Origin: Anaerolineae bacterium | Lineage (GTDB): Bacteria; Chloroflexota; Anaerolineae; Anaerolineales; Villigracilaceae | DNA length: 60,981 bases | Reading direction: 5' to 3' | NCBI GenBank assembly: GCA_041488995.1 | Contig: JBGPQJ010000001.1 | Span: forward strand, 1 to 60,981 | Program-made: the position numbers and the translations under genes | In this document: one piece after another, positions 4,728 to 60,735 of the stretch | How positions within the stretch are numbered: position 1 is the first letter of the stretch | Layout of the letters: every line of letters begins with the position of its first letter | The notes under the pieces: model-generated | Databases searched by the model: none | What the model was told of the DNA's origin: nothing | What the model saw: only the letters and a program-made list of their open reading frames with translations

Positions 4728-6089
4728 ATGAGCCTTCGTAATTTACCGTCTGTCGAACAGTTGTTGAAAACATCCGCCGCCGAAAAATGGGTGGCGGATT
4801 ATGGTCGTCCGCTGACTTTATCCGCCATTCGATCGGTCCTGGACGAAATCCGTGTTCAGTTCAATTCGGGAAAAATGACCGATGTCCCCCGAAAAGAAGG
4901 GATCCTGTCCCGAGTCGACTCCCAGTTACTGGCATGGACGTGTCCCACACTGCTGCCTGTCATCAACGCAACAGGGGTGATCCTGCATACGAATTTGGGG
5001 CGAGCCCCCCTCGCCGGTTCTGCAATTGCCGCAGTTGAGGCGGCTTCAGCGGGCTATTCCAACCTTGAGTTTGACCTCCCAACAGGCAAACGCGGCTCAC
5101 GTCTGGTCCATGCAGAAACGATTTTGCAGTTGCTGACCGGCGCGGAAGCAGCTTTGGTGGTCAACAACAATGCTGCCGCAGTCCTGCTTGTCCTTTCAGT
5201 GCTGGCGAAAGGCAAACGGGTCGTCATCCCGCGCTCGCAGCTGGTTGAAATCGGCGGCGGCTTCCGCGTGCCGGATGTGATGAAGCAATCCGGGGCGAAA
5301 CTGGTGGAGATCGGCACCACCAATAAGTTGCGCCTGTCTGACTTCGAGGAAGCGCTCGCCGAACCGGCGGGTCTGGTCATGAGGGCTCACCGATCGAATT
5401 TCAAGATGATCGGTTTTACCGAAGAGCCTCCCCTGAACAAGATTATTGATCTTGCGCATCAACACCAGACGCCGTTCGTGGATGATCTGGGTTCTGGCGC
5501 ATTGATTGATACGGCAAAATATGGAATGGAACACGAGCCGATGGTTCAAGAATCCATTTCAGCGGGTGCGGATGTGGTATGTTTCTCCGGTGACAAATTG
5601 CTCGGAGGTCCACAGGCGGGAATCATCATTGGCAAAGCAGACTTGATCGCCAGGATCAAGAAACATCCCCTCGCGCGAGCCCTCCGCGCAGACAAGCTGT
5701 GTTTGGCTGCGTTGACAGCCACACTTCTGCTCTATCTTAAGAATGACGCGGAGAGTGAGATCCCAGTCTGGCGCATGATCGCCAGACCCCTCAAGGATGT
5801 CAAGGCAAGCGCGGAGTCCTGGCGACGGGAACTAGGAACAGGTCAAGTGATCCGGTCTGAATCTACAGTCGGCGGAGGATCGCTGCCCGGGGAGTCAATC
5901 CCCACTTATGTGCTGGCGTTTACTGTCAAATCGCCGGACCGCTTTTCAGCCCGGTTGAGGATCCAATCACCCCCGGTGATCGCCCGCACAGAAAATGACA
6001 TGGTTCTGCTTGATCCAAGGACGGTGTTGATCGACCAGGAGAATGAGCTTCTTTCTATTTTAAAAACTTTGCTCTCGGAGACGAAATGA
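4728..6089 (+). CDS. selA: L-seryl-tRNA(Sec) selenium transferase
   Basis: 453 aa. N-terminal LRNLPSVEQLL SelA signature, NATGVILHTNLGRAPL, and a PLP-lysine context FSGDKLLGGPQAG. Confidence 0.9.
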   Translation: MSLRNLPSVEQLLKTSAAEKWVADYGRPLTLSAIRSVLDEIRVQFNSGKMTDVPRKEGILSRVDSQLLAWTCPTLLPVINATGVILHTNLGRAPLAGSAIAAVEAASAGYSNLEFDLPTGKRGSRLVHAETILQLLTGAEAALVVNNNAAAVLLVLSVLAKGKRVVIPRSQLVEIGGGFRVPDVMKQSGAKLVEIGTTNKLRLSDFEEALAEPAGLVMRAHRSNFKMIGFTEEPPLNKIIDLAHQHQTPFVDDLGSGALIDTAKYGMEHEPMVQESISAGADVVCFSGDKLLGGPQAGIIIGKADLIARIKKHPLARALRADKLCLAALTATLLLYLKNDAESEIPVWRMIARPLKDVKASAESWRRELGTGQVIRSESTVGGGSLPGESIPTYVLAFTVKSPDRFSARLRIQSPPVIARTENDMVLLDPRTVLIDQENELLSILKTLLSETK

Positions 6090-52806: not shown

Positions 52807-54045
52807 CTAAGATTTCATTCGGTCGATTGGTTCCACCCCGATCGTATCAATTTGAATTTGAGATGGAGAAGTCTCTCGTAGTATCCTGTTTGCTCGAATC
52901 AGAATAGAGAAATTGAGTAAAACCAACATCATCAATCCGGTTACAGAAATCACTGGCAGGCTTTTCAACCAGGGCGATGGATTTGACATATATCCAATGG
53001 CTATTCCAACTGCGGATGACAATGACAATGCATTCCAAATGCCGTGGAGCAGGACAACGGCGAGATAAGTCAGACCAAGCTGGAGATATTTTCTCTCCCG
53101 CCAGGCACTCACCAGCGCCCATCCCATCAACCCGGTTGTGACAATATGCAATAAATCCGATCCAGCCCGTGCTATGGAAAGCAGTCCCCAGGCGTTAGAA
53201 CTGCTCGATAAGGCTCCCAGACTCTCCACAAGTGTATATCCTGCGCCGCATAATGCCCCGAAAGCAAATCCCTGTTGAGGAGTGATTATCTGGTTTGAGC
53301 CGAGCCATACACCCAAAGGCTTTAAGACTTCCTCGATGAGTGGAGTGAAAACCGAGAAGAAAATCAGACCAGTGATGATTACTGCCGGGTTAAGAAGGTA
53401 GGGAGTCAAAATTCTCACTAACGCATCAGGGTTGCTGGTGTACATCAATCGCGCGCTTAAAGCCTCGATAGAGTGCAACAAGGATGGATTTAGGCTAATC
53501 CATATAATTGCTACGATCCCAATGAAAGCAATTATCATTATTTCCGCAATTCCGATGAGAAATGGGACAATCGCCATCCCAACTGTGATTGTTCCCCAGC
53601 GACGCTCATTCGATCCGACATCCAGGCCGTGTAAAGCAATTCGAGCGAGGATCCAAACCGGCAATACCACTGTCAACAAATTCAAGGGTAACAGTAGAAG
53701 GAACATGGATTCCTGTTTCTCCAAAAGCAACCCGAGACCGGCTGCAGCGATCCAGACTATGATCAACGCTGTCGTTGGGATTCTCTGCAAGGGCAAGTCT
53801 GCCTCGGGCTTATTTGAGATACGCATAAAGCTGTAATACACAGCTGGCAAGAAAACCGTGCCCAGGAACAATAATCCCGCAGAAAGCATCAGCGTTGATT
53901 TGGCAAATTCGACATTCCCCGACAAATATTCCATGAGGCCGGTAAAACCCATCACTGCTCCAGCACCGAAACAGATCAGGGAGGATAATGAGCTCAAAAA
54001 GAGCAGCAGGATCGAAGTCCAGGGCGTATTTCTGCGGTTTTGCAT
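52807..54045 (-). CDS. PrsW-like intramembrane metalloprotease family protein
   Basis: Polytopic, 412 aa. Motifs are spaced as in PrsW: EEVLKP (EExxK), FGALCGAGYTLVES (FxxxE) and LLHGIWN (HxxxN). The ATG overlaps the upstream stop (TAATG). Confidence 0.65.
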   Translation of the reverse strand: MQNRRNTPWTSILLLFLSSLSSLICFGAGAVMGFTGLMEYLSGNVEFAKSTLMLSAGLLFLGTVFLPAVYYSFMRISNKPEADLPLQRIPTTALIIVWIAAAGLGLLLEKQESMFLLLLPLNLLTVVLPVWILARIALHGLDVGSNERRWGTITVGMAIVPFLIGIAEIMIIAFIGIVAIIWISLNPSLLHSIEALSARLMYTSNPDALVRILTPYLLNPAVIITGLIFFSVFTPLIEEVLKPLGVWLGSNQIITPQQGFAFGALCGAGYTLVESLGALSSSSNAWGLLSIARAGSDLLHIVTTGLMGWALVSAWRERKYLQLGLTYLAVVLLHGIWNALSLSSAVGIAIGYMSNPSPWLKSLPVISVTGLMMLVLLNFSILIRANRILRETSPSQIQIDTIGVEPIDRMKS

Positions 54046-55277
54046 TACCTCTCCTCAATGGTCACACTGATGAGTTTATCTCCTGGTGGCGGTGAAGTGC
54101 CGGATTTCGGATCGCGAGCAGTTAGCTGATACAAGACATCCATGCCGCTAATGACTTGCCCAAAAATCGTATACCCTCCATCGAGATTAGGTGCAGGGAC
54201 GAAGGTAATAAAGAACTGACTCCCATTCGTGTTTGGCCCGGAATTTGCCATTCCGACCACCCCGGGTTTATCATATTTTAGAGACGGGTCTATTTCATTA
54301 TCGATGTAGTAGCCTGGATTTCCCATGCCGGTGCCTGTCGGGTCTCCAGTTTGAGCCACAGCTCCCGCAATCACGCGATGAAAGGTGATCCCATTAAACC
54401 AACCGTCATTGGCGAGGAAAACGAAATTATTTACTGTGTTGGGAGCCTTATCAGCATACAGTTCAATGACTACCTCGCCCTTTTCAGTTTTAAGCCTTGC
54501 TATATATTGTTTGGAAGGATCTATTATTAAAGGTGGACAGGTTTTATACTGCCTTTCAGCAATGGAAAGCAGATTGACTATTTGGTTTAAACTGGTGTAA
54601 TCAAGAGGGCCGCCGTAGATCTGACCATTAATAAGCACGAAAGGTGTTCCAGGCAGCCCGATTTTTTTACCATTTTCCCATGCTTCGTTTACTTTTTTGA
54701 CGATGTCCTCACGGGTCAAATCGATCTTGAACTGGGCTGCATCCAACCCGAGGGTGATTGCCTGCCCGGGCAGCCATTTAGAAAATTCATCAGAGGTGAA
54801 GGCACTCCACTCCTGTTGTGTGGCAAAGAGAAAATCATGCATTTCCCAGAACTTGCCCTGCTCTCCGGCAGCTTCTGCAGCTTGGGCAGATAGGGCGGCT
54901 TTGTCGTGGATGGTTTCGAGCGGAAAATTGCGGTAGACGAGGCGGACTGTATCAGGATTCTGTTGTTGGAGTTGCGCCAGCACGGGCGCAAGGTAAGCGC
55001 AGTAGGGTCATTGAAAATCGCCATACTCGATGATGGTCATCGCGGCATCTTTCGGTCCGACGACGTGGTCATCATCACTTACTGCCGGGAAAAGAGATGT
55101 TTCCTTGGCATCCGGGGTAGGTTCAATGCTGATTCTTTGGCAGAGAGCCTCAAAGGTAGGAGATGGTTTCGGCGTGAGAGTGGGGAGCCGTGTGGCAGTT
55201 GGAGCGGAAATCCCATTTCCGCAGGCTGCCAGCACTAAAAGTACAAGAATGCTAAAGATTGGAATGAGAGTGCGCAT
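54045..55277 (-). CDS. candidate selenoprotein: lipoprotein with a DsbA-like thioredoxin domain (UxxC) fused to a cyclophilin-type peptidyl-prolyl isomerase; TGA at 55008-55010 read as Sec
   Basis: Track ORFs 55008-55277 and 54045-54983 are in the same frame and separated only by TGA. The joined sequence reads ...AAMTIIEYGDFQ-U-PYCAYLAPVLAQL...GKFWEMHDFLF...GLPGTPFVLINGQ (DsbA family), followed by a cyclophilin domain (FHRVIAGAVAQTGDP...GVVGMANSGPNTNGSQFFI). The N-terminus is a lipoprotein signal (LVLAAC). Confidence 0.78.
54972..54991 (-). promoter_or_regulatory. candidate bacterial SECIS-like stem-loop
   Basis: The mRNA reads UUGCGCC-CGUGCU-GGCGCAA, a 7-bp stem with a 6-nt loop containing GU. 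The stem begins 17 nt after the UGA, so the loop lies 24-29 nt downstream. Confidence 0.5.
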
Positions 55278-55360: not shown

Positions 55361-56644
55361 TTATTGGACGGCTACCTTTAGTTCATCAAATGAAGTCATC
55401 CAGGCGACGCGATATATAAATTCAGCCAGTGTCGCACTGCGTTCCCGCAGCGCACGGACTGCTGGACCGACCGGGTCTTCACCGGCTGCACCACCCGGGA
55501 CGTCTGCATAAGCACCGTAAAAAGCGAAATAAGCCTGGTTCAGTTTTCGCAGGGCATAGCCATTATCCCAGAATAGTTGACGGCGTGAATCCATATAGTT
55601 TTCAGCTTCTTCAATTTTACCTTCCGAAAGAAGCTGGTCTACTGTGACCCGGGTCTCGTGCATCTCCACTCGAAAATCAAACGGTTGGCGAAAATCGCCT
55701 GGGTTTGGTCGCCCATTGGATTGTGAAACCAGCCCGGAGGCGGTTTGTTCCCGCGCGATCAGTTCAGGGTAGTATTTCTCAATGACACGCTGCCCGATCT
55801 CTTTCCCAGCGATGCTGGCAGTAGTCTCATTCATTGTACGCAATTCTGGTGTGGTGTCGTATCGAATTCCGAGGGGACGCAGGGTCAGGAAATTGTGAAT
55901 CCATTCGTGCGCGACAACTTCGGTCAGCCATCTCAAATCGCTCGTGCGCATTACCATGGTGGGGTATGCGCCGATGCCGCCAACCGGGACGATGAGCGAT
56001 GATACATTGAGCTGTTTATCCACCTCTGTCTCGAGGATTTCGCGCTGTTCAACGGTCAGGTCGGGGAGCAGCGAGAGGTTGGCATCCTGTTGGACTTTTT
56101 CGCGAGGAGAAATGATCAATGCCAGCGGGAGAGGTGAAACTTTATAAAGCACCGAAGGAATCGGTTGCCCGCCGGTCGTCAATCCCATTTCCGAAGCGAC
56201 CGAGCCGACTTGATCTTGTATCACCGATTCGGTGAAGGGTGCCAGGTTTTGCTGCTGGTGGGTTAGTTCGTTCAATTCCTTCCGCAAGGGTGCGGAAGAA
56301 GCGTCCTTGTCTATAATGGCGGGGTCGGCATAAATTTGATCCAGATCGCTCTCACGTTTCTCAATATCTCTCGTAATCTGAATATAGTCATAGACCACCT
56401 GTTTGCGTTGATCATTATTGAGATAATAGGGCATGCTCATTGCGCTGAGCTGGAGTTTCTGCCAGGCAGCATTTACTGTCCAGGTAAAGTAATCAAACTG
56501 CACATCTGAAGACAGCATTCCAGCCTGTTCAGGGATGGTGCCTGCTTGAGCGGAGCTGGTCGTCATATTGCCAAACACGGCAATGATGATCGCCCAGAGA
56601 ATGGGGTGGCGAAGGATTGCATTCACAGAAGGCATTATAACCAT
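55361..56644 (-). CDS. secreted/membrane-anchored hypothetical protein with an HExxH motif (putative zinc metallopeptidase)
   Basis: N-terminal signal/anchor (ILWAIIIAVFGNMTTSSAQA). VVAHEWIHNF contains HExxH. No further family recognition. Confidence 0.55.
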   Translation of the reverse strand: MVIMPSVNAILRHPILWAIIIAVFGNMTTSSAQAGTIPEQAGMLSSDVQFDYFTWTVNAAWQKLQLSAMSMPYYLNNDQRKQVVYDYIQITRDIEKRESDLDQIYADPAIIDKDASSAPLRKELNELTHQQQNLAPFTESVIQDQVGSVASEMGLTTGGQPIPSVLYKVSPLPLALIISPREKVQQDANLSLLPDLTVEQREILETEVDKQLNVSSLIVPVGGIGAYPTMVMRTSDLRWLTEVVAHEWIHNFLTLRPLGIRYDTTPELRTMNETTASIAGKEIGQRVIEKYYPELIAREQTASGLVSQSNGRPNPGDFRQPFDFRVEMHETRVTVDQLLSEGKIEEAENYMDSRRQLFWDNGYALRKLNQAYFAFYGAYADVPGGAAGEDPVGPAVRALRERSATLAEFIYRVAWMTSFDELKVAVQ

Positions 56645-58806: not shown

Positions 58807-60630
58807 CTATTCTGCCGAAAAGTCTTCGCCGAACAAGGCTTCGTCGTATTCCTGGGCTTGCTGGTGCGCCTGCCGCGCCTGGACAAGGCTCTCGCCCAGT
58901 TGGGTAAACCCGGCACGCAGTTCTTCTGCGCTCTGAGATCCCACCCAAACATCGACCAGCAGGTCTTCAAAATCACCCTCGTCAGAAAACTGCCCCAAAA
59001 TCATATCCATTTCGCCGATGACCAGTTCAAACATGTTGAGTTTTTGGTCGAGTATCTCAAGCAGGTAATCCTCCACTGTGCCACGTGCCGAAAGATTGTA
59101 GATGCGGACGTCGCGGGTCTGTCCCACACGATGAATGCGCCCAACGCGCTGTTCTATGCGCATGGGGTTCCATGGAATGTCGAAATTCACCATCGTCCGG
59201 CAAAACTGGAGGTTGCGCCCTTCCCCTGCAGCCTCGGTGGAGAGCAAAACGCGGGCGCGTTTCTCAAACGTTTCAATGGCCTGGTTTTTGGCGCTGATAT
59301 CCATCTCGCCGTGATAGGTGACGAAATCGATATTCATTTGCCGCAGAAGCTCCGAGAGCCGGTCGATGGTGCGGCGGAAGTGGGTGAAAATGATGATCTT
59401 CTCGGTCGGGTCGCGCAGAATGGTTATGAGTAATTTTTCGAGCGCATCGGCCTTAGCCCAAGCGCGGATTTGTATAGACTGGTCGGCTAGGCTGAGTAGG
59501 ACGCGGCGGGCTTCATCGTCGCGAGCGCGGGCTGCCAGGGAGCGCAGCATCGGCTCGGCAGATTGAGGACTGCTGCCGATTTCGCGCTGAAGAGTGAGCA
59601 AAGCAAGCCGGTCCACCTGGCGCAAGCCGGCGTTTTCTCCCCTGCTCCCGATCGCTTCCCCATTAGATAACGGGGTCTGAGTGAGAGATGCGCGGATATA
59701 AGCGCTGACGGCCTGGTAAAACGCGCTTTCCTCCGCAGAAAGATTCAGACGGATGGTATTGGCTTGGCGCGGCGGGAGTTTGATATTGACCTGACTGCGG
59801 GTGTGGCGCACCATCACATCACCTAGCAGTTCGCGCAGTTGGCCGCGGTTTTTTGGCAAACGAGGATCCCCACTGACCACAAACTGTTTGCGGAATTCAC
59901 GCGGTGTTTTCAATTGCCCTGGCTTGAGCAAGGTAATTAAGTTATAAAGTTCGTCGAGGTTGTTCTCAACAGGGGTGGCGGTGAGTAGTAAAATGTACTT
60001 GTGCTGTAACTCGTTGACAAATTTCCATGAGGCACTGTTACGGTTTTTGAGATGATGAGCTTCATCCACCACGATCAAGTCGTAGGGGATTTGGGCGAGA
60101 CGGGCGCGATTTTCAGCCCGTCTCGCGGTAGCCAGCGAGGCAATCAGCAGCGGGAAGCGTTCCCAGGCCTCGGCTCCTGCGGCGCGGAACTCAGCGTCGG
60201 CGCTTGTAACGAAACCGGGTAGGTCAAATTTGACAGCCAGCTCATCGCGCCATTGTTCCACCAGCGCGGCGGGTGTGACCACCATCACACGCTGAACAAT
60301 GTTACGAGTAAGATACTCTTTGAGCACCAGTCCAGCTTCGATGGTTTTGCCCAGCCCGACTTCATCGCAGAACATGCCGCGCCCGCGAAAACGACGCAGC
60401 ATAATCTGAGCAGCATGCACCTGGTAATCGAAAGGCGCAAACTTGAGCAGGTCGAGGCAAATCAACTCGTCGAATCCTCCCACCAGCACGGCATGTTCTG
60501 CCAGCAGGCGCAGATGGTAAAGTTCGCGGCTGGCGAATTGTCCGCCGCTGATGGCTTTGAACAAGCTAGCATCCACCGGCAACAGGCGGATGTCAGTAGC
60601 GGGGAATTTGAGGGATGTGTCAGGTGGCAT
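58807..60630 (-). CDS. SNF2/RapA-like superfamily-2 helicase/ATPase
   Basis: Motifs DEVGLGKTIEA (I), VVDEAHHLKN (II), LLLTATPVENNL (III) and LLSTEAAGEGRNLQ...NFDIPWNPMRIEQRVGRIHRVGQ (V-VI). Start given at ATG 60630 (MPPDTS); the track uses TTG 60642. Confidence 0.88.
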   Translation of the reverse strand: MPPDTSLKFPATDIRLLPVDASLFKAISGGQFASRELYHLRLLAEHAVLVGGFDELICLDLLKFAPFDYQVHAAQIMLRRFRGRGMFCDEVGLGKTIEAGLVLKEYLTRNIVQRVMVVTPAALVEQWRDELAVKFDLPGFVTSADAEFRAAGAEAWERFPLLIASLATARRAENRARLAQIPYDLIVVDEAHHLKNRNSASWKFVNELQHKYILLLTATPVENNLDELYNLITLLKPGQLKTPREFRKQFVVSGDPRLPKNRGQLRELLGDVMVRHTRSQVNIKLPPRQANTIRLNLSAEESAFYQAVSAYIRASLTQTPLSNGEAIGSRGENAGLRQVDRLALLTLQREIGSSPQSAEPMLRSLAARARDDEARRVLLSLADQSIQIRAWAKADALEKLLITILRDPTEKIIIFTHFRRTIDRLSELLRQMNIDFVTYHGEMDISAKNQAIETFEKRARVLLSTEAAGEGRNLQFCRTMVNFDIPWNPMRIEQRVGRIHRVGQTRDVRIYNLSARGTVEDYLLEILDQKLNMFELVIGEMDMILGQFSDEGDFEDLLVDVWVGSQSAEELRAGFTQLGESLVQARQAHQQAQEYDEALFGEDFSAE

Positions 60631-60735
60631 TTTGCTCTTCAATTGACGGGATAAATTATTGCCTAGCGATTATACCTTTGATTCTTGCGAGAAATTTTGG
60701 TGTATGCTTTACAAATGGACTTGATTAATAAATTC

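Follow-up and report, generated by a model that had tools for sequence, protein, structure and literature searches.

A single gene on the minus strand of a 60,981-nucleotide stretch of DNA from an Anaerolineae bacterium (GCA_041488995.1, contig JBGPQJ010000001.1, positions 1 to 60,981; the whole of this stretch is referred to below as the window) very probably encodes a selenoprotein of 410 residues. The gene occupies positions 54045 to 55277, and its predicted product carries selenocysteine (Sec) in the redox site of a DsbA-like domain that is fused to a cyclophilin-type peptidyl-prolyl isomerase (PPIase). We place the probability of this reading at roughly 0.88, on the basis of comparative sequence analysis. 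The reading frame runs from an ATG at 55277 to a TAA at 54047–54045, and its sole interruption is a TGA at 55010–55008, in the context EYGDFQ-TGA-PYC.

The local reading across the interruption is T-I-I-E-Y-G-D-F-Q-TGA-P-Y-C-A-Y-L-A-P-V-L-A-Q-L. At this locus, the open reading frame (ORF) list gives an 89-aa ORF (55008–55277, minus strand), which ends in ...TIIEYGDFQ followed by the TGA, and a 312-aa ORF (54045–54983, minus strand) in the same frame, which opens with a GTG; between them lie only the TGA and 24 nt encoding P-Y-C-A-Y-L-A-P. An earlier, sequence-only reading of this DNA had proposed a continuous frame with the TGA placed on the first Cys of a CxxC motif, and both translation and a Pfam domain that spans the TGA bear this out. 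Its junction was right in giving a joined product of 410 aa but wrong in detail, as the GTG codon had been counted twice, once as the V of 'PYCAYLAPV' and again as the M of 'MLAQ'. It had also anticipated that automatic annotation would split the gene, and the database entries of the truncated form are all 312-aa fragments. A plausible ribosome-binding site, GGTGAGGAAAG, stands 5' of the ATG at 55277, and a peptide across the recoded codon would read ...EYGDFQ-U-PYCAYLAPVLAQLQQQNPDTVR. TGA serves as the ordinary stop in 15 of the 48 non-overlapping long ORFs of the window, which indicates the standard code without a general reassignment of TGA, and a scan of the window revealed no further TGA-interrupted gene with a redox-motif context.

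The evidence that carries this reading comes from relatives of the gene. When the joined protein was used as the query, the ~20 closest clusters (71–86% identity) were all exactly 312 aa long and covered the C-terminal 76% of the query, and more distant homologues (53–69% identity) were full-length, at ~405–430 aa; truncation at exactly +9 codons was seen in 21 of the 120 top database clusters. DNA retrieved for the truncated relatives L081, L083 and L164–L171 represents eight distinct lineages, and in all eight the same codon is TGA, never TAA or TAG, with an intact upstream frame, a lipobox and the 24-nt gap. On two further contigs, compared by gene layout, ORFs of 89 and 312 aa are again separated by 24 nt. 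Profile searches of genome contigs with the whole joined protein were dominated by the generic cyclophilin motif NTNGSQFF and returned distant relatives only. A metagenome contig search with a DsbA-only alignment, in which the matches listed were mostly at ≤54% identity, was the source of a divergent Sec form at L089 (49% identity, DFQ-TGA-PYC), as well as of redox-dead forms that are described below. A second divergent Sec form, L174 (54% identity), encodes the protein P0011 and has two cyclophilin domains. Overall, TGA stands at codon 90 in 10 independent lineages at 49–86% identity, and its recurrence at the same column in 10 independently assembled lineages excludes chance or sequencing error.

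Full-length homologues carry Cys at the TGA column (DFQCPAC, DFQCPQC, DFQCPSC), a CxxC motif is found in 38 of the 120 top homologues, and the syntenic orthologue P0002 (locus L172), which is 69% identical, has TGC exactly at the TGA codon. This is the TGA-versus-Cys comparison that the sequence-only reading had suggested as a check, and the TGA of the 10 lineages and the TGC of L172 answer it in the expected direction. Selection points the same way. Synonymous sites are near saturation in a codon alignment of the eight lineages (pS ~0.75), and the ratio of nonsynonymous to synonymous differences (pN/pS) is 0.27 in the 60 codons upstream of the TGA, 0.24 in the downstream DsbA part and 0.135 in the cyclophilin part. 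The low ratios on both sides indicate that both "ORFs" are under purifying selection in one frame, and the two downstream values uphold the earlier statement that conservation persists past the TGA and that the gene is not dead. Two marks of a bacterial selenoprotein, a Sec/Cys pair and coding conservation on both flanks of the UGA, are accordingly both present.

A hairpin directly after the UGA has the properties of a bacterial selenocysteine insertion sequence (SECIS). On the minus strand, its 5' arm lies at 54991–54985, its loop at 54984–54979 and its 3' arm at 54978–54972, which puts 16 nt between the UGA and the stem and 23 nt between the UGA and the loop. The hairpin folds at ~−11 kcal/mol in all Sec forms, in agreement with the earlier remark that a suitable hairpin follows the TGA. 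Published criteria for bacterial SECIS elements (PMC13188914) are an apical loop of 3–9 nt, an upper stem of 4–16 bp, a minimum free energy of ≤−7.5 kcal/mol, a UGA-to-loop spacing of 16–37 nt, and a G within the first two nucleotides of the loop, with G or U as the usual next base. With a loop of 6 nt that opens C-G-U, a stem of 7 bp, a spacing of 23 nt and an energy of ~−11 kcal/mol, the predicted element falls within every one of these limits. Across the Sec forms the loop reads CGUGYU, with G then U at loop positions 2–3.

Conservation of this element is visible at the nucleotide level. All stem cells are paired in a 10-sequence alignment (70/70), and L089 shows a compensatory change from C-G to A-U at the fourth pair (5' GCG to GAG, 3' GCG to GCU). 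Among 187 codons with an invariant, degenerate amino acid, 13 are codon-invariant, and nine of these 13 lie between −4 and +17 codons of the TGA (hypergeometric P=1.1e-8). Eight-codon windows over the hairpin have the lowest synonymous divergence of all 328 in the gene, at 0.10 versus a mean of 0.56. When the Sec forms are used to build a covariance model, they score 70–78 bits (by construction), L172 and L173 score 42 bits, and ~80 other Cys-form or redox-dead loci score ≤22 bits; the model has a single match in the window. At the Cys orthologue L172, GCU stands for GCG and CGG-UUG for CAA-CUC, and the stem is broken. The decayed copies, at L172:4184-4237 and L173:5277-5330 (both from the P0002 Cys orthologue), look like a fossil SECIS left behind after a TGA-to-TGC reversion, and comparable SECIS remnants have been described (PMC1794560). 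Apart from the hairpin, the G-D-F codons GGC-GAT-TTT (55011–55022, minus strand; −4 to −2 from the TGA) show no synonymous change among the eight Sec lineages; in the Cys orthologue the first of the three is AGC. One possible reason is that recoding needs a particular codon context in addition to the hairpin.

One domain bridges the interrupted codon. With Cys in place of the stop, the joined protein matches Thioredoxin_4 (PF13462) over residues 68–234 (E=1.7e-24, 87.3 bits, gathering threshold 23.2), which spans the TGA at residue 90, and it also matches DSBA (PF01323; 59.6 bits, gathering threshold 25.6) and the cyclophilin family (PF00160; E=1.1e-44, 152.9 bits, gathering threshold 21.7). 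The TGA aligns to the first Cys of CPYC in the solved DsbA-like protein 3gyk. An AlphaFold2 (AF2) model of the closest Cys orthologue, P0002 (pLDDT 84.6, pTM 0.73) places strand beta1 (TIIEYSD) just before the CxxC, the start of helix alpha1 at the CxxC and a helical insert after it; with beta1 encoded ahead of the CxxC, a 312-aa product by itself would have an incomplete fold and no catalytic residue or export signal. The protein belongs by these signs to the DsbA/Thioredoxin_4 group (fold, CxxC-type motif at alpha1, cis-Pro), the first Cys here being a UGA codon. For the C-terminal part, Foldseek gave TM-scores of up to 0.86 against cyclophilin structures, and F299-H300-R301, Q309 and Q354-F355-F356 (FHR...Q...NGSQFF) are invariant in 42 homologues. 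Assignment to the cyclophilin-type PPIases likewise follows from a score above the gathering threshold and from the retained catalytic Arg and Gln/Phe pocket. No PDB entry matching both domains was returned by the structure search. The N-terminus, MRTLIPIFSILVLLVLAAC, holds a lipobox in which C19 is invariant and L16 nearly invariant among the 42 homologues, and all Sec-form relatives have L[AST]AC or MTAC at this place. The lipoprotein signal peptide of the sequence-only reading is thus also predicted here, from the lipobox LAAC and a C19 that is conserved in all relatives.

Two features of the protein lie outside the redox motif. The position equivalent to F60 of human cyclophilin A, which belongs to the hydrophobic pocket (residues ~303–308, FHRVIAGAVAQTGD), is Ala in the window protein; it is F, I, S, T, A, E, K or Q within the Sec clade and Phe in the family consensus, and the Sec clade may have a PPIase pocket that is less constrained or changed. 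In addition, C46 (~55140–55142, minus strand; EALCQRIS) and C247 (~54537–54539, minus strand; QYKTCPP) are invariant in 42 of 42 homologues, redox-dead ones included. C46 is encoded 5' of the TGA and C247 3' of it, in the linker between the DsbA-like and cyclophilin domains, and the pair may form a structural disulfide, which would link the segments that the UGA separates in the gene.

The genome encodes SelA, and its gene, which the sequence-only reading had already placed in the window, is intact with a full-length TIGR00474 match. It is the only Sec-insertion component visible in the window, and the contig that carries an identical SelA (GCA_041489885.1) ends 431 nt past the window, with nothing new in that interval.

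Several results weigh against a selenoprotein and need to be set beside this evidence. Neither selB nor selD nor tRNA-Sec was found within the window by an NCBIfam scan of 20 larger ORFs and by ARAGORN, which reported no tRNA of any kind there. Folding of the RNA after the TGA, which had been proposed as a check, yields a hairpin within the SECIS limits, but its energy alone is no better than that of shuffled sequences (z=−0.64 for 71 nt and −1.25 for 51 nt, with 29 of 200 shuffles folding as well); the significance of the hairpin thus comes from its conservation and not from its folding energy. Part of that conservation is at the protein level, because the hairpin codons encode conserved residues (APVLAQL), an effect for which the synonymous-site analysis controls. 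The covariation amounts to a single compensatory event, which was equalled in 41 of 500 shuffles. No Rfam SECIS family was matched at the gathering threshold across the whole window or in a permissive scan of the junction, which is weak evidence because bacterial SECIS elements are poorly covered by Rfam.

Three other explanations of the locus were weighed. Every pipeline calls exactly two ORFs here, and the GTG is conserved in all lineages, as would be expected of two genes, the first for a secreted lipopeptide of 89 aa with the TGA as its stop, the second for a 312-aa protein translated independently from the GTG 24 nt downstream. Partial termination at Sec-UGA codons is normal in bacteria, and a softer version of the two-gene idea allows for selenium-dependent output, with the short product made when selenium is scarce and the full-length one when Sec-tRNA is available. 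We consider two separate genes improbable. The junction lies inside a single Thioredoxin_4 domain and a single predicted fold, the 312-aa product would be without signal peptide, strand beta1 and catalytic residue, and no Shine-Dalgarno-like purine run precedes the GTG (GCTTACCTTGCGCCC). Moreover, the eight codons from the TGA to the GTG keep the P-x-C motif and the frame in all lineages, and the invariance of the GTG itself is explained by its being a conserved Val of the full-length Cys homologues that also lies in the hairpin loop.

Slightly less probable again is decoding of the UGA as a standard amino acid (Cys, Trp or Gly) by a suppressor or near-cognate tRNA, a variant code or a Cys-charged tRNA(Sec). 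Termination is weak at a UGA with C as the next base, homologues carry Cys, Ser or Ala at the TGA column, and selB, selC and selD were not found within the window, all of which would fit such readthrough. On the other side stand the use of TGA as the normal stop of 15 of the 48 long ORFs, a dedicated and conserved hairpin with SECIS geometry that simple suppression would not need, the decay of this hairpin once TGA becomes TGC, and an intact selA, whose sole known role is in Sec-tRNA synthesis. A report considered as a possible precedent for UGA-to-Cys recoding in Chloroflexi (PMC5424206) describes no such system. A pseudogene, or a TGA introduced by a sequencing or assembly error into a former Cys gene, is the least credible of the three: one in-frame stop does split an otherwise intact gene whose full-length product is annotated by neither NCBI nor JGI, but the same TGA recurs in 10 independently assembled lineages of 49–86% identity, pS is ~0.75 against a pN/pS of 0.14–0.27 on both sides, there are no further stops or frameshifts, and the signal peptide and operon context are kept. 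The comparative data effectively refute this explanation already.

If the gene is indeed that of a selenoprotein, the bacterial recoding mechanism appears entirely canonical here. Translation would begin at the ATG at 55277, and the ribosome would reach the UGA at codon 90. The mRNA hairpin 16 nt downstream would then act as a bacterial SECIS and, by analogy with E. coli fdhF, recruit SelB-GTP with Sec-tRNA(Sec); selenocysteine, formed on its tRNA by the SelA encoded in the window, would be inserted at UGA-90 instead of termination. Judging from the lipobox, the signal peptide would direct export of the product, which would then be anchored to the outer side of the membrane by a lipid on Cys19. 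Homology of the domains and the chemistry of selenoenzymes suggest that the selenenylsulfide/selenol-thiol couple of U90-P-Y-C93 would carry out thiol-disulfide exchange with exported proteins, and the fused cyclophilin could isomerise prolyl bonds of the same clients, so that one extracytoplasmic foldase would combine two activities. Compared with Cys, Sec would be expected to make the exchange faster and to be less prone to irreversible over-oxidation. The redox direction could be that of an oxidase, an isomerase or a reductase. Sec insertion itself, export, lipidation and cooperation of the two domains are all steps that we infer.

The features of the locus are collected in Table 1. In the order of its parts, the 410-aa protein comprises a lipoprotein signal peptide, a linker, the DsbA/Thioredoxin_4 domain with UPYC, and the cyclophilin PPIase.

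Table 1. Coordinates of the predicted selenoprotein gene, its parts and associated genes in the window.
Feature	Position	Strand	Details
Complete predicted selenoprotein gene	54045..55277	minus	410 codons including one UGA (Sec); stop TAA 54047-54045
Signal peptide with lipobox L-A-A-C, residues 1-19	55221..55277	minus	C19 = predicted lipidated Cys; homologue conservation
DsbA-like/Thioredoxin_4 domain, ~residues 68-245	54543..55073	minus	cis-Pro loop G-T-P (LPGTPFVLING); PF13462, PF01323, PDB matches
Predicted Sec codon (codon 90), first position of U-P-Y-C	55008..55010	minus	TGA in 10/10 Sec lineages
Predicted bacterial SECIS hairpin	54972..54991	minus	UUGCGCC-CGUGCU-GGCGCAA; 7-bp stem, 6-nt loop
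Cyclophilin-type peptidyl-prolyl isomerase domain, ~residues 261-410	54048..54497	minus	PF00160, Foldseek
PrsW-family intramembrane protease gene, downstream	52807..54045	minus	ATG overlaps selenoprotein TAA (TAATG)
Conserved 427-aa protein	55361..56644	minus	N-terminal hydrophobic segment, HEWIH motif; directly upstream in every relative examined
selA, L-seryl-tRNA(Sec) selenium transferase	4728..6089	plus	TIGR00474 546.7 bits (cutoff 267.9), full-length; Pfam SelA 2.9e-133

The genomic neighbourhood of the gene is conserved. PrsW follows in L081, L165, L166, L168, L171 and L172, which include both Sec-form and Cys-form relatives, and it probably belongs to the same operon; the TAATG overlap together with the kept synteny suggests translational coupling. 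The 427-aa protein upstream has no Pfam or NCBIfam match, and its HEWIH motif is of the HExxH type, so that it may be an uncharacterised secreted metalloprotease encoded in the same operon. At the P0002 locus (L172), the gene order is a ~430-aa protein, the fusion gene, PrsW, a VTT/DedA protein and a penicillin amidase. The combination of the HEWIH protein, the foldase and PrsW suggests an operon for envelope protein quality control. The tandem-cyclophilin Sec gene at L174:1-1641 (NCBI GCA_964443795.1, CAYUFY010000321.1), which has UPYC, an identical hairpin and 488 aa after the TGA, is followed by a GAF/PAS histidine kinase gene, not PrsW. Further along the window, an SNF2-family helicase (58807–60642, minus strand) resembles DISARM DrmD (NF038317, 245 bits, below the cutoff of 610) and could belong to a defence system located at the window's right edge.

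The family contains several states of the redox motif. At the TGA column, the set formed by the top 120 homologues, the window protein and L089 comprises 38 CxxC, 55 DxxS, two AxxC and one SxxC forms, together with 23 that have Sec or presumed Sec and two without an aligned residue. The rare forms are AxxC in P0042 and P0063 and SxxC in P0023. In a large sister clade (55 of the 120 top clusters; P0025, P0040, P0113 and others), the CxxC has become D-x-x-S (DYQD[LPV]RS). Redox-dead DxxS loci include L084, L085, L087, L088, L091 and L092, in which the DsbA-like domain is predicted to be dead and the cyclophilin and the two other Cys are kept. In a rough neighbour-joining (NJ) tree, the truncated (Sec) clusters and the window protein form one clade, inside which a single Cys member, P0002, is nested; this position and the fossil hairpin point to a reversion from Sec to Cys in the recent past. 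Deep branches of the same tree lead to L089 and L174, and their retention of the same hairpin suggests that Sec may be old in the DsbA-cyclophilin family. Whether Sec was the ancestral state of the whole Chloroflexota family of DsbA-cyclophilin lipoproteins is a further step, which we regard as doubtful on the sequences at hand. If it was, an ancient selenoenzyme would have been downgraded repeatedly to give the CxxC, SxxC/AxxC and DxxS forms, a natural series from U to C to S/A to dead within one orthologous, syntenic context, and the family would include an extracytoplasmic seleno-foldase, the first case of a selenoprotein joined to a prolyl isomerase in one polypeptide.

Annotation is affected directly. 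The window gene and at least ~20 related clusters are, on this reading, mis-annotated as a truncated 312-aa "peptidylprolyl isomerase" and an orphan 89-aa ORF, and a dedicated profile model would mend annotation across Anaerolineae-like metagenome-assembled genomes (MAGs). The bacterial selenoproteome would gain an enzyme that is exported, lipid-anchored and fused to a PPIase, and selenium use in Chloroflexota would extend past the few families named in reviews. The closely related Sec, Cys, Ser/Ala and redox-dead variants, with a revertant that carries a decaying SECIS, could serve as a natural system for comparing Sec with Cys in a DsbA-type site. Current understanding is not overturned by this selenoprotein.

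Comparison with known systems places the window gene within an established theme. Like the E. coli fdhF SECIS and the bacterial SECIS model, its hairpin is a stem-loop within the coding sequence right after the UGA, with a small apical loop and G-U at loop positions 2–3, and its spacing and energy are within the limits of the bSECISearch consensus in the summary given by PMC13188914. Unlike the fdhF element, it has no evident bulged U, and the two share no sequence similarity. DsbA-like UxxC selenoproteins (PF01323/COG2761) were described in the Sargasso Sea selenoproteome (PMC1088965) and DsbG-like ones (PF13462) by Zhang et al. 2006 (PMC1794560); both have been known since 2005–2006 and are listed in reviews of 2022 and 2026 (PMC9312934, PMC13188914). 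The DsbA-like selenoprotein form 1 (PMC1088965) resembles the window protein in its thioredoxin-fold DsbA-type domain, in having Sec first in the redox motif and in having been predicted by Sec/Cys pairing and a bacterial SECIS. It differs in belonging to the FrnE-like COG2761 subfamily and in being a stand-alone domain for which no PPIase fusion is reported, whereas the window protein scores higher with Thioredoxin_4 (87.3 bits) than with DSBA (59.6 bits).

The DsbG-like selenoprotein corresponds to the curated NCBIfam entry NF041057, the 'Rcas_1661 family thioredoxin-like (seleno)lipoprotein', which takes its name from a Chloroflexi locus and shares the Thioredoxin_4 domain, the UxxC position of Sec and the lipoprotein signal. 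The NF041057 profile matches residues 10–235 of the window protein to profile positions 3–245 of 247, with 86.8 bits (E=1.7e-24), below its cutoff of 190. Although the window protein has a predicted lipoprotein signal and a (U/C)xxC thioredoxin-like domain, this score makes it a relative of NF041057 and not a member, as judged from the profile. It also differs in its additional C-terminal cyclophilin domain of ~165 residues and in forming its own orthologous family with the conserved synteny of HExxH protein, selenoprotein and PrsW. NF041057 will not rescue the mis-annotated entries, because they score below the cutoff.

Solved DsbA-like proteins, namely 3gyk, the ScsC-type 4gxz, 6nen, 6mhh and 4xvw, B. 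subtilis BdbD (3eu3) and S. aureus DsbA (3bci), likewise have a helical insert in the thioredoxin fold, a C-P-x-C motif where alpha1 begins and the cis-Pro 'GTP' loop, with CPYC of 3gyk corresponding to UPYC of the window protein. In contrast to it, all of them are Cys proteins with a single domain, at E-values to the window protein of 1e-13 to 1e-6. Fusion to a cyclophilin is itself widespread: the sequence-only reading had called the architecture unusual, and this does not hold, as there are instead thousands of Cys-form and redox-dead fusions, which are common in Anaerolineae-like Chloroflexota and of which JGI names the Cys forms 'cyclophilin family peptidyl-prolyl cis-trans isomerase/protein-disulfide isomerase'. 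Cys-form DsbA-cyclophilin fusions such as P0002 and that of Ornatilinea apprima (L001) have the same two-domain architecture, lipobox and invariant C46 and C247, whereas the non-Sec fusions of Anaerolineae-like Chloroflexota carry TGC/CxxC, SxxC, AxxC or DxxS and no intact hairpin. The terms cyclophilin, peptidyl-prolyl, Chloroflexi and Anaerolinea do not occur in the main text of the 2026 review, and within the literature collection searched no paper pairs "selenoprotein" with "peptidylprolyl isomerase". UxxC selenoproteins of the DsbA-like and DsbG-like kinds were already known, and the window protein would join them as a further member, arguably as a variant in view of its fusion to a PPIase.

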